Assembly (NCBI RefSeq): GCF_000010065.1
Contig: NC_006576.1
Span: 390,001 to 422,000, forward strand
DNA: 32,000 bases
Source of the DNA: Synechococcus elongatus PCC 6301
GTDB taxonomy: Bacteria > Cyanobacteriota > Cyanobacteriia > Synechococcales > Synechococcaceae
Direction: 5' to 3'
Made by a program: the position numbers and the translations under genes. Position 1 is the stretch's first letter; every line of letters begins with the position of its first letter. Below the pieces are notes generated by a model. That model was not told the DNA's origin, did no database searches, and saw nothing but the letters and a program-made list of their open reading frames with translations. This document shows positions 30,033 to 32,000 of the stretch, piece after piece.

Positions 30033-30042
30033 GAGCTGGCTA

Positions 30043-31368
30043 TTACAATTGCTGCGGTGGACTGAAGACCAGTTGCAATTGCAACGACCACTCGCGTCGC
30101 GATCGCCGTTGGAGTTGAATCTCGCGGATAAATTCCCGAAAGAAAAAGCGCCGCTCCACTTCCGAAAGATCCTGCCAGAACTGGGGAATAGCAACGGCTT
30201 GCACCAATTCCGGCAGATTGACGGGCGAGAGTTGGGCTTGGCGATCGCGAAGTTGCACCAGTTCCGTTTGAAGCTGAAGCCGTCGGATAGCAGCTGTCTC
30301 CGCGTCGAGGATGCCCCGCGCTTCTAAATCTGGCAGTTCAACGCTCAGAATCTGCTGCAGTTCCGCTTGGCGACTAGCGATCGCAGACTTAGCCGGATTT
30401 TGCTCTGGTTGACCCAGTGCTGAAACCGCGATCGGGAGTTCCTGGCAAATGGTTTGAATCACCGTTTGCAGGCACATATCGTAGGCGATCGCGCTGCAAC
30501 GCGGGCTTTGTTGACAGGCAGCAGGCGATCGCAGATAAAGGTATTCACGGTCGCTGCGGTGGGGTTTGGTGCTGCCAACAATTAGATGCGCCTGACAGGT
30601 TTGGCATTGCACCAGTCCGGCCAAGCAACGGGGTGCACTGGCAGTTTTGGGGGGGAGGCGTCGATTGCGCCGCAAAATGCGATCGATCTGCGCGGCTTCT
30701 TCTCGCGATACCAAGGCGGGATGGGTGTCGGCCACGATCGCTCCACTGCCGTAGACCAAATCGCCGCGATAGGCCGGATGACTCAGCCAGCGGCGCACGG
30801 TCATGACTGCGATCGCCCGCTGATGTTTTTGCGAGACATAGCGGGCAGCCCCTCGCAGGGAGCCATAAATCAGGAAATGCGCGACCCCATCTCGCACCAG
30901 TGCAGCTGCAGCCCGATCGATCGCATAGCGATCTTTGCCGCGACGGTAGCCAAAGGGCGCAGGGCCGGGAGGTGGCAAGGCTTGCAATCGATTTCGGGCA
31001 TGACCAGCTTTTAACCGATCGCGTTGCTGCGATCGCTGTACTTCGGCCCAAAGTGGCAGTAAATCCAGTCCAGCAGCGGAATCGAGGGGGAGAGGTTCGT
31101 CTAAACCTACGATTTGCACTTGCACGGACTGTTGCTGACAGTGCTTCAGAACGGGCAACAAGGCATCAAGGCGATCGCCCAGATCGTGGAGTTGCCGAAG
31201 CCAAAGGCGATCGCCCGGCTGCAATTCCGTCAATAGCTGCTGTAACTGAGGGCGATCGGGGGCGGGCAATCGGTCACAAAAAACCCGATCGGGGGACTCT
31301 GGCCAAGTCTCGAGGGCAACCAGCGTTTCCCAAGTCGGATTCAAAGCGTAGTAGGCGACGATCGCCAC
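30043..31368 (-). CDS. Large serine recombinase family homologue with substituted catalytic residues (predicted inactive)
   Basis: 441-aa ORF with a GTG start. An in-frame TGA 4 codons upstream (31378-31380) excludes a longer N-terminus. It has a resolvase-like N-domain, a recombinase domain (PAPFGYRRGKDRYAIDRAAA..), a Cys-rich zinc-ribbon-like segment (CLAGLVQCQTC...C..C) and a C-terminal coiled-coil-like region. Confidence 0.75.
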   Translation of the reverse strand: MAIVAYYALNPTWETLVALETWPESPDRVFCDRLPAPDRPQLQQLLTELQPGDRLWLRQLHDLGDRLDALLPVLKHCQQQSVQVQIVGLDEPLPLDSAAGLDLLPLWAEVQRSQQRDRLKAGHARNRLQALPPPGPAPFGYRRGKDRYAIDRAAAALVRDGVAHFLIYGSLRGAARYVSQKHQRAIAVMTVRRWLSHPAYRGDLVYGSGAIVADTHPALVSREEAAQIDRILRRNRRLPPKTASAPRCLAGLVQCQTCQAHLIVGSTKPHRSDREYLYLRSPAACQQSPRCSAIAYDMCLQTVIQTICQELPIAVSALGQPEQNPAKSAIASRQAELQQILSVELPDLEARGILDAETAAIRRLQLQTELVQLRDRQAQLSPVNLPELVQAVAIPQFWQDLSEVERRFFFREFIREIQLQRRSRREWSLQLQLVFSPPQQL

Positions 31369-31541
31369 GACCGTCCGTCAGTAGGCTACTTTTTCAGCCA
31401 GCTAAGCATAGCCCGCGGTTTTTTGCCCACCGACCCGATCGGATGCTCAGCTTCTAGGTAGCGAATGACGGTCATTTCAAGCCAAGGCGGATCCGAGCAG
31501 CCAACTAAACTCTGATTTAGTTAGAGACTCAACTGACATCG

Positions 31542-31797
31542 ATCGCCATCAACCGGATCGCACCCTTGAGGATCACTGCGATCGCAGCACTGCCACACTT
31601 CTTGTCACTATCAGCGGTAGAAGCAGGGGAAACACTCTAAGAAACCTATCGACAATTGTGGTCACAATTAGGCGTGCAATTGGATGGCGATCGCCCGCCC
31701 GCTCACAACTTGTTATTAACGCGGCAGTGGTTATTTATTGTTCCGCTTAGTCGTGAAAGCCACCTGCCGATTAACGTCAATGCCTTGGGTTTCGCGG
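31542..31797 (+). pseudogene. Fragment of an ATP adenylyltransferase / Ap4A phosphorylase-like gene (C-terminal domain only, in-frame stop, truncated at both ends)
   Basis: HNLLLTRQWLFIVPLSRESHLPINVNALGFA matches the conserved YNLL(L/M)T..W...VPRS....N..G(F/Y)(A/C)G block. There is an in-frame TAA at 31638-31640. No N-terminal HIT-like half lies upstream, and homology ends at about 31797. Confidence 0.55.
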
Positions 31798-31839
31798 ATC
31801 GCACCCGAAAGGCCAGGGGTTCGAATCCCCTTAGCTCCA
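31795..31839 (+). other. 3' portion (positions about 29-73) of a tRNA-Ala(CGC) gene; no 5' half is present
   Basis: Canonical register throughout: anticodon loop aT-CGC-ac, 3' anticodon-stem strand CCGAA, variable loop AGGCC, T arm AGGGG-TTCGAAT-CCCCT, acceptor 3' strand TAGCTCC (U70 Ala identity position) and discriminator A. No D arm or GGGGCTA 5' strand lies upstream. Confidence 0.7.
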
Positions 31840-32000
31840 TCTTTCAGGAATTGAATGACTGCGAATTGCAGGCTGATCGCAGTAGCGCTAAAGGGTGTTC
31901 AACAGCTCACAGATTAAGTTACCAAGAACTGTTATTGGTTGGGATGCTGTTAGGTTGCTGACGCTATTTCATTTTACTTGCAGAGGGAAAAACTCTTCCA

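Follow-up and report, generated by a model that had tools for sequence, protein, structure and literature searches.

The window analyzed here is a 32,000-nucleotide stretch of DNA from Synechococcus elongatus PCC 6301 (NC_006576.1, positions 390,001 to 422,000 of the forward strand). Near its right end lies Synpcc7942_1166, a reverse-strand gene whose product is a catalytically degenerate homolog of the large serine recombinases (LSRs). The open reading frame (ORF) call gives a GTG start and 441 codons without interruption. An earlier note, made from the sequence alone, had argued from an in-frame stop four codons upstream that no N-terminal segment was missed, and we found the same stop on recomputing the ORF (TGA-CGG-ACG-GTC before the start, on the gene strand). 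Orthologs fix the start independently: their N-terminal MKIIAY corresponds to the MAIVAY of the window protein. The protein is identical in strains PCC 7942 (ABB57196.1), PCC 6301 (BAD78574.1), and UTEX 2973 (AJD58290.1), and every listed S. elongatus strain carries an intact, identical or near-identical copy. The gene has been tabulated as a non-essential 'hypothetical protein' of COG class L at NC_007604 1199437..1200762 (PMC9260433 supplements); later supplementary tables name it 'Site-specific DNA recombinase' (COG1961).

The composition of Synpcc7942_1166 matches that of its surroundings. Nine exact copies of the HIP1 octamer GCGATCGC lie inside the gene, as the earlier note had counted approximately by eye, and the window as a whole holds 109 copies compared to 1.2 expected from shuffled sequences. 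HIP1 density in the gene is at least the window average (6.8 vs 3.4 per kb; Poisson P = 0.04) and GC content is close to it (0.581 vs 0.570), and the composition is therefore that of resident chromosome and not of a recent arrival, in agreement with the note. Two of the HIP1 copies, at 31171-31178 and 31207-31214, are read as Gly-Asp-Arg. In one case these residues are G64-D65-R66 in the degenerate 'DRLGR' box described below, and that octamer overlaps the codon that replaced Arg71.

Table 1. Features of the Synpcc7942_1166 locus in window coordinates.
Feature	Position	Strand	Remarks
Coding sequence (CDS) Synpcc7942_1166 (ABB57196.1, UniProt Q31P23)	30043..31368	-	441 aa + stop; catalytically degenerate LSR homolog
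In-frame TGA	31378..31380	-	4 codons 5' of the Synpcc7942_1166 GTG
Residues 1-100, resolvase-fold N-terminal domain	31069..31368	-	lacks R8, S10, R68, R71; helix A replaced by Pro-rich loop
Key codons of the N-terminal domain	A8 31345-31347; N10 31339-31341; D62 31183-31185; D65 31174-31176	-
Residues 101-130, long helix E ending in conserved GHARNR	30979..31068	-	helix 103-130 (DSSP); H123 and R127 invariant
Residues 131-240, PPPG linker and recombinase domain PF07508	30649..30978	-	most conserved part
Residues 241-320, predicted zinc-ribbon domain	30409..30648	-	C255, C258, C285, C291 invariant; structural match 4kis (A118 integrase-DNA)
Residues 321-380, predicted antiparallel coiled-coil motif	30229..30408	-	helices 325-350 and 356-379; aligns with active LSRs
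Residues 381-441 and stop, C-terminal segment	30043..30228	-	conserved PQFWxDLSExERRFxFREFI and beta hairpin
HIP1 octamers inside the gene	30099, 30241, 30377, 30485, 30525, 30809, 31029, 31171, 31207
5' leader/promoter block, ~179 bp	31369..31547	-	95.5% identical between PCC 7942 and PCC 11801 (CDS ~86%)
Near-palindrome AATGAC-G-GTCATT	31464-31476		within the 5' leader
Hairpin AACTAAA-N6-TTTAGTT	31501-31524		within the 5' leader; one PCC 11801 arm change would keep a G-U pair
12-nt direct repeat CGGATCGCACCC	31554 and 31795
Synpcc7942_1165, truncated ATP adenylyltransferase (PF09830)	31656-31961	+	junction ~31795
tRNA-Ala-like T-arm and acceptor 3' end CAGGGGTTCGAATCCCCTTAGCTCCA	~31813-31839		abuts the Synpcc7942_1165 fragment

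Loss of the serine-recombinase active site

Three independent alignments agreed on the positions of the window protein that correspond to the active site of serine recombinases. A phmmer alignment with gamma-delta resolvase paired D32 with D36, R39 with R45, H61 with D67, D62 with R68, G64 with G70, and D65 with R71. When the family was compared by hhalign with a set of 16 active LSRs of the XisF-like type, its 'eeLGds' fell on 'DRLsRs'. A MAFFT L-INS-i alignment that included 16 active LSRs set MAIVAYYALNP on xxxGYARVSxxEQ, so that Y6 coincided with the active-enzyme Tyr, A8 with the Arg, and N10 with the nucleophilic Ser. The window protein has Ala8, Asn10, Asp62, and Asp65 where Arg8, Ser10, Arg68, and Arg71 are expected, and no alignment placed a Ser or Arg at these positions. 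The central reading of the earlier note, an intact LSR homolog without the nucleophile or the three catalytic arginines in which the LDRLGRS box reads LHDLGDR and both of its arginines have become aspartates, was thus borne out. Both Bxb1 (R8, S10, D81, R82, and R85) and phiC31 are reported to depend on the residues that are lost here (PMC12884075); the nucleophile, at the end of strand 1, is S10 in Bxb1 and S12 in phiC31.

The change extends beyond single residues. Both the MAFFT alignment and the secondary structure assigned by DSSP to a predicted model (see below) show that helix A, the element that follows the Ser and carries the EQ...Q residues in active enzymes, has given way to a Pro-rich loop in which Trp22 is mostly conserved; DSSP gives a strand at residues 3-9 and another at 28-33, and what lies between them is mostly non-helical apart from a 3-residue helix at 19-21. 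This replacement explains why the Pfam Resolvase match begins only at profile position 48.

We then counted residues in a 51-sequence family alignment that included the most divergent representatives. Position 8 is Tyr in 45 of the 51 sequences and Arg in none. Position 10 is Asp in 27, Asn in 9, Glu, His, or Pro in 3 each, and Ser in 1, with Gly and Ala also found. At position 62, 44 sequences have Glu or Asp (otherwise R, V, T, or Q), and at position 65, 50 have Asp, Asn, or Glu, with Ser as the remaining residue. Position 9, Leu in the window protein, is Ser or Thr in many members and otherwise variable. The active-site set is complete in 0 of 51, the single sequence with Ser10 lacks all of the arginines, and the Arg68 equivalent is kept only in three Gloeomargarita-type sequences. 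Within the N-terminal domain, only Y6, D32, R39, L63, and G64 are conserved in 95% or more of the sequences. Because replacement is seen throughout this alignment, the loss of catalytic residues is a property of the whole family and not of S. elongatus alone. As to whether the Asn/Ala/Asp substitutions proposed earlier are themselves conserved, the loss of the set is family-wide, and the exact residues are S. elongatus variants on a family consensus of Tyr8, Asp10, Glu62, and Asp65. With no catalytic set and a remodeled helix A, the family is predicted from its sequences to be incapable of canonical phosphoserine cleavage and strand exchange.

The three Gloeomargarita-type sequences (P0150, P0303, and P0144) read W-D-R-L-G-D; the equivalents of Asp67 and Arg68 are retained, and those of Ser10, Arg8, and Arg71 are gone. 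Retention of Arg68 in this 'DRLGD' form suggests that the catalytic residues were lost stepwise, and W-D-R-L-G-D may represent an intermediate stage of active-site decay.

A cyanobacterial family under purifying selection

Multiple lines of evidence support the maintenance of this family as a functional host gene. First, the family has a sharp boundary. A word-indexed search returned 1952 matches, and the best 120 of these 1952 were all cyanobacterial, full-length apart from rare fragments, and 46-52% identical to the window protein, with the exception of the S. elongatus representative P0001 (93%). When 1.84 billion representatives were searched exhaustively with a profile, full-length family members scored from 647 down to 354 bits, followed at 124 bits by an active XisF-like LSR as the next-best protein of full length. 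All proteins above this gap are without the YxRVS and DRLxR motifs; all that we inspected below it carry both.

Second, the family is widespread and intact. At least 526 GTDB species genomes encode a relative (one genome was scanned per species), covering Nostocales, Oscillatoriales, Pleurocapsales, Spirulina, Trichodesmium, Leptolyngbya-type lineages, and others, and cluster look-ups added Thermostichus ('Synechococcus' of the JA-3-3Ab type, ABD00507.1) and Gloeomargarita. For the PCC 7002 ortholog, SYNPCC7002_A2262, the published conservation index over 73 genome clusters is 91.8% (PMC5464585 supplements). Orthologs are intact across the phylum, with lengths of 427-470 residues. We take the zero columns in the phyletic profile of SYNPCC7002_A2262 to be the accessions of Prochlorococcus and marine Synechococcus; the family is present in almost all cyanobacteria, the marine Prochlorococcus/Synechococcus clade excepted.

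Third, descent appears to be vertical. A neighbor-joining tree of 38 sequences recovered the Nostocales, Trichodesmium/Okeania/Dapis, and Microcoleus/Kamptonema/Tychonema groups, with S. elongatus, Thermostichus, and Gloeomargarita at its base. The protein tree therefore mirrors the species phylogeny, the pattern of vertical descent. No family members were found among 2.9 million viral contigs (IMG/VR) or 72,556 plasmids (PLSDB), and phage records contained only serine integrases 22-26% identical to the window protein. In JA-3-3Ab and Gloeomargarita, the flanking genes are housekeeping genes, such as obg, a gene for an S1-domain protein, chlL/chlN-type genes, and pheT. The family is chromosomal and is not carried on a mobile element.

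Fourth, the sequence is under constraint. Between PCC 7942 and PCC 11801, the proteins are 92% identical, and the ratio of nonsynonymous to synonymous substitution rates (dN/dS) is 0.067 (dN 0.041, dS 0.61). The ratio is below 0.13 in every domain, with 0.073 for the N-terminal domain, and three neighboring genes gave 0.035-0.051. The earlier note had proposed that the ORF is held open by selection for an exapted function and is not that of a decaying integrase, and had named orthologs and dN/dS as ways to examine this; the alignments, the full-length orthologs throughout the phylum, and a ratio similar to those of the neighboring housekeeping genes all support the proposal. Neither the uninterrupted codons, nor this ratio, nor the undegraded state of the orthologs is what a pseudogene would show.

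Finally, the gene is expressed. RNA-seq counts for Synpcc7942_1166 are ~150, similar to its neighbors, compared to ~9 for the truncated Synpcc7942_1165. Of the expression and essentiality data to which the note had pointed, the counts show that the gene is transcribed, and the transposon data class it as non-essential, as described below.

Domain architecture and pattern of conservation

The Resolvase profile PF00239 matched the window protein at 32.7 bits (cut-off 23.3), only over profile positions 48-140 of 145, and matched 30 of 30 family members. The Recombinase profile PF07508 gave 30.4 bits (cut-off 21.1) over residues 154-235 and was likewise found in 30 of 30. PF13408, the zinc-ribbon profile, was below threshold in the window protein (11.4 bits vs a cut-off of 25.3) and matched 28 of 30 orthologs; the four cysteines listed in Table 1 align with those of active LSRs, and the protein has a predicted four-Cys zinc-ribbon domain with an inserted coiled coil. 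PHROG 95 ('integrase') matched residues 102-426. The recombinase domain, Cys-rich segment, and coiled-coil-like region that the earlier note had recognized are therefore all retained.

The AlphaFold2 model, for which 30 sequences were aligned, had a mean predicted local distance difference test score (pLDDT) of 81 and contained resolvase-fold strands and helices, a recombinase domain composed of helices, a zinc-ribbon region rich in beta structure, and a C-terminal hairpin. The top Foldseek matches in the PDB were cryo-EM and crystal structures of full-length LSR-DNA complexes, namely 9dxd (E 1e-16), Bxb1 9iu2, A118 integrase 4kis, and phiC31. Gamma-delta, Tn3, and Sin catalytic domains came next, and the modeled domain superposed on those of Sin and gamma-delta.

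Conservation is distributed unevenly along the protein. In the 51-sequence alignment, the mean frequency of the commonest residue was 0.77 in the linker and recombinase domain, where 26 positions are conserved at 95% or more, 0.69 in the C-terminal segment, 0.62 in the zinc ribbon, 0.59 in helix E, 0.56 in the coiled coil, and 0.50 in the N-terminal domain. The conserved C-terminal motif PQFWxDLSExERRFxFREFI has a weaker form in XisF-like LSRs.

Gene neighborhood

Among S. elongatus strains, the 3' side of Synpcc7942_1166 is syntenic (genes for a CpeS-like protein, an AIRC/LarB-like protein, and a peptide-binding protein, followed by ispF) and the 5' side is not. These neighbors are not conserved outside the species, so the synteny that the earlier note had thought worth examining does not hold; most other lineages instead have a VOC-fold gene upstream. 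In 64 of 80 loci from outside S. elongatus, a VOC/glyoxalase-fold gene (PF00903, ~120 aa; consensus MQITQSLHAAILVSDLEKSE...; for example, L001:7611-7982) lies directly upstream on the same strand, often overlapping the LSR-like gene by 4 bp or 1 bp, and it is the only widely conserved neighbor across the 80 loci. The overlap suggests translational coupling. Because cyanobacterial gene order is otherwise poorly conserved, the linkage is probably functional. A hidden Markov model of the VOC sequences from the 64 loci found nothing in the S. elongatus window and only a weak generic glyoxalase match in PCC 11801.

The two S. elongatus arrangements differ at both ends of the gene. In PCC 7942, only a 10-bp gap (window 30033-30042) separates Synpcc7942_1166 from the convergent CpeS-like gene; in PCC 11801, a gene for a 90-aa PQ-loop/MtN3-like (SemiSWEET-type) protein overlaps the 3' end of the LSR-like gene (L081:7325-7597). 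The PCC 11801 5' flank (L081:303-5284) encodes a 1220-aa DEAD/HIRAN helicase and a phage-integrase SAM-like fragment, and the S. elongatus 5' flank is thus a strain-variable island site.

The 5' leader and the tRNA-like junction

The block of 5' leader immediately upstream of the gene is conserved between PCC 7942 and PCC 11801 (Table 1) and is a candidate regulatory region; beyond it, ~180 bp 5' of the gene, the S. elongatus strains differ. Its RNA fold z-score is -2.2. Across positions 31300-32000, no Rfam family reached the gathering threshold, and only a tRNA/tmRNA-type T-arm fragment was seen. We rejected a 29-codon leader ORF (MTVIRYLEAEH...) as a gene, since four of five strain differences in our own reading of the alignment are non-synonymous.

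The sequence ATGACC-N-TCAT occurs three times in ~1.2 Mb of retrieved loci, in each case 84-107 bp 5' of an LSR-like start. The carriers are PCC 11801, in two records, and an unrelated metagenomic ortholog, P0045 (49% identical); the retrieved positions include L087:466-476 and L081:5894-5904, and the window has a copy at the same place (31465-31475). It is a possible shared operator in lineages without an upstream VOC gene.

Farther upstream, the ATP-adenylyltransferase similarity of Synpcc7942_1165 ends exactly where the tRNA-Ala-like piece begins. Both the tRNA-like piece and the gene fragment recur in PCC 11801, ~150 bp closer to the LSR-like gene. Orthologs elsewhere sit in unrelated housekeeping contexts. 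The tRNA-like junction and the direct repeat belong to the strain-variable flank and not to Synpcc7942_1166, and the att-like fossil junction that the earlier note had placed beside the gene is therefore not tied to it.

Proposed role and alternatives

LSRs grip DNA and recognize their specific attachment (att) sites with the C-terminus of helix E, the linker, the recombinase domain, and the zinc ribbon (as in 4kis), and these parts normally diverge between enzymes. In the family described here, the same parts are the most constrained, which makes it most likely that the protein still binds a specific DNA site. By homology, a dimer would occupy a specific site of ~40-50 bp; dimerization and possibly site pairing would fall to the N-terminal domain, helix E, and the coiled coil, and two sites may be bridged through N-terminal and coiled-coil contacts without cutting. 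The unusual phylum-wide conservation of the recognition domains would mean that the target itself is conserved across cyanobacteria. In most lineages, a small VOC (glyoxalase-fold) protein is probably co-translated and may supply a ligand-linked or enzymatic partner function.

We are highly confident that Synpcc7942_1166 is a selected, catalytically dead, exapted LSR. To the whole statement, that it is an ancient, vertically inherited, exapted LSR acting as a non-catalytic DNA-binding factor with a regulatory or architectural role, we assign a probability of roughly 0.6. A more ambitious version holds that a serine recombinase has here, in a first known case, been exapted as a non-catalytic factor, one that is present throughout the cyanobacterial phylum and is, by our own estimate, probably more than two billion years old. 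Such a factor would rely on LSR dimers, tetramers, and coiled coils for binding and pairing specific chromosomal sites that are themselves conserved, without cutting them; it would regulate genes or organize the multi-copy chromosome, and would work with a co-translated VOC-fold partner in most lineages. We offer this version tentatively and regard it as rather doubtful.

Several observations weigh against a DNA-binding regulatory or architectural role. DNA binding, dimerization, and synapsis are assigned from homology. The model has a predicted TM-score (pTM) of only 0.45, which leaves the relative placement of its domains undefined. Charge reversal in the former phosphate pocket, from Arg to Asp or Glu, could weaken contacts at the center of a site. 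A k-mer comparison of up to 80 loci, covering 250 bp 5' of the VOC/LSR-like unit, 150 bp 5' of the gene, and 250 bp 3', in each case against control flanks, found no non-coding motif shared across genera; the signals recovered were coding sequence (MKIIAY), AT-rich words, and HIP1. Linkage to the VOC gene is absent in S. elongatus, Thermostichus, and Gloeomargarita and hence cannot be obligatory. Finally, transposon insertions in Synpcc7942_1166 are tolerated, the gene is classed as non-essential, and random barcode transposon sequencing (RB-TnSeq) screens for competence, UV, conjugation, and biofilm revealed no specific phenotype. The competence value was -0.41 (adjusted p 0.067), the UV and neutral-site conjugation values were not significant, and the RSF1010 value of -1.2 fell within a population-wide shift of 708 genes and was not gene-specific.

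Alternative explanations must be judged against the same evidence. The missing catalytic residues, the tRNA-Ala-like 3' fragment and truncated ATP-adenylyltransferase gene 430-470 bp upstream, and the differing upstream flanks of S. elongatus strains are what one would expect if the gene were a decaying integrase, left over from an element that had integrated at the tRNA-like junction and still open by chance. We give this next to no chance. Conservation extends through the 179 bp that precede the variable flank, the gene has a native HIP1 density and GC content, copies are intact in all listed S. elongatus strains, the protein tree tracks the species tree, and full-length orthologs in at least 526 species share the active-site substitutions; ortholog conservation together with the dN/dS value of 0.067 rules out a plain pseudogene. 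Selection on the N-terminal domain, the invariance of Y6, D32, and R39 in 51 of 51 sequences, and the mostly acidic character of the replaced positions raise a different question, namely whether the protein is still a DNA enzyme that uses Tyr6, Asp32, Arg39, and the acidic replacements as a new nucleophile or metal site. The resolvase fold resembles 5'-nuclease and Toprim-type folds. However, the acidic positions vary (D, N, E, H, P, G, S, or A at 10; E, D, R, V, T, or Q at 62; D, N, E, or S at 65), helix A is lost, and the N-terminal domain is the least conserved part, which makes new chemistry at the old pocket unlikely; moreover, the equivalents Y6, D36, and R45 are conserved in ordinary serine recombinases, so their retention requires no such chemistry. 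We consider this explanation very improbable.

A third possibility is that the protein acts mainly through protein contacts, as a partner, decoy, or inhibitor of active serine recombinases such as XisF-type enzymes or phage integrases, for example by occupying att sites or capping coiled coils and thereby blocking integration or excision. Its closest active relatives are indeed XisF-like LSRs, and it retains the coiled-coil motif and helix E through which LSR subunits contact each other. The coiled coil, however, is among the less conserved regions and the DNA-recognition domains are the most conserved, the family is present regardless of heterocysts or known elements (S. elongatus and Thermostichus included), and no recombinase or phage gene is a conserved neighbor, so that we think such a role unlikely. 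PADLOC defense models gave no match at E <= 0.01. The notion that the family binds the HIP1 palindrome GCGATCGC genome-wide draws on the cyanobacterial distribution of both, the high density of HIP1 in S. elongatus, and its presence in almost all of the 80 loci; marine picocyanobacteria, moreover, lack HIP1. Yet the Thermostichus JA-3-3Ab locus (L083/L084) has no HIP1 and 14 copies of GGGATCCC in 11 kb, Oscillatoria PCC 10802 and Microcoleus vaginatus (L006, L018) have 6-15 copies of TGCCGGCA in 17 kb, and Gloeomargarita (L085/L086) has no obvious iterated palindrome in 11 kb. The recognition domains are highly conserved across these genomes with differing palindromes, and a site of 8 bp falls far short of the footprint of an LSR. 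We rejected HIP1 binding as unsupported, since gene-bearing genomes use other palindromes or none, and grant it scarcely any likelihood.

If the non-catalytic, site-binding role is correct, the family provides a natural 'binding-only' LSR scaffold and a testable role for a near-core cyanobacterial gene that is annotated only generically; should its DNA target be conserved, it could reveal a further layer of chromosome regulation or organization in cyanobacteria. Database labels for the family are 'recombinase family protein', 'DNA invertase Pin-like', and 'hypothetical', and our results warn against counting such genes as integrases or mobile-element markers in cyanobacterial genomes.

Comparison with known systems

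Serine recombinases have been studied as enzymes and as tools for genome engineering. In literature searches that left subscription journals mostly uncovered, we found no described case of an exapted, inactivated serine recombinase and no account of this family or its inactivation, including the members from PCC 7942, PCC 7002, and T. elongatus. The fold and the wider family are known; the phylum-wide, non-catalytic derivative is undescribed.

The closest characterized relative is XisF, the recombinase that excises the fdxN element in Anabaena/Nostoc. Its equivalog model NF041201 was the best curated match, at 115.5 bits over residues 73-420, a score far below the 375-bit cut-off, which places the window protein outside the equivalog. 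With XisF-like LSRs as a group, hhalign aligned residues 19-424 (probability 100, E 7.6e-57), and both sets share the recombinase domain, a four-Cys zinc ribbon, a coiled coil, and a C-terminal W..L..(K/E)R..(R)..I pattern. XisF-like proteins have YxRVSxxEQ and DRLxR, reside on excisable elements, and catalyze excision, whereas family members lack the nucleophile and arginines, have lost helix A, and are chromosomal and vertically inherited. The large serine integrases of phages (Bxb1, phiC31, A118/LI, and SPbeta-type) have the same overall fold and domain order; identity is 13-26%, and the family has neither the catalytic Ser and Arg residues nor att sites, a recombination directionality factor, or a phage context. 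With small serine recombinases (gamma-delta/Tn3 resolvase, Hin, and Sin), the homology covers the N-terminal domain and helix E (E 0.005-0.03), with target-normalized Foldseek TM-scores of 0.55-0.69 for the catalytic domains. The family keeps the equivalents of Y6, D36, R45, and G70 of these enzymes, but those of R8, S10, D67, R68, and R71 are replaced, and its C-terminal DNA-binding region is of the LSR type and not a simple helix-turn-helix.

Other dead enzymes of mobile elements have been exapted, including the nuclease-dead TnpB regulators and host genes derived from Cryptons, which encode tyrosine recombinases. Their folds and chemistries are unrelated to those of serine recombinases, but they follow the same logic, in which a DNA-recognition scaffold remains under purifying selection after catalysis has been lost and is inherited vertically as a host gene.

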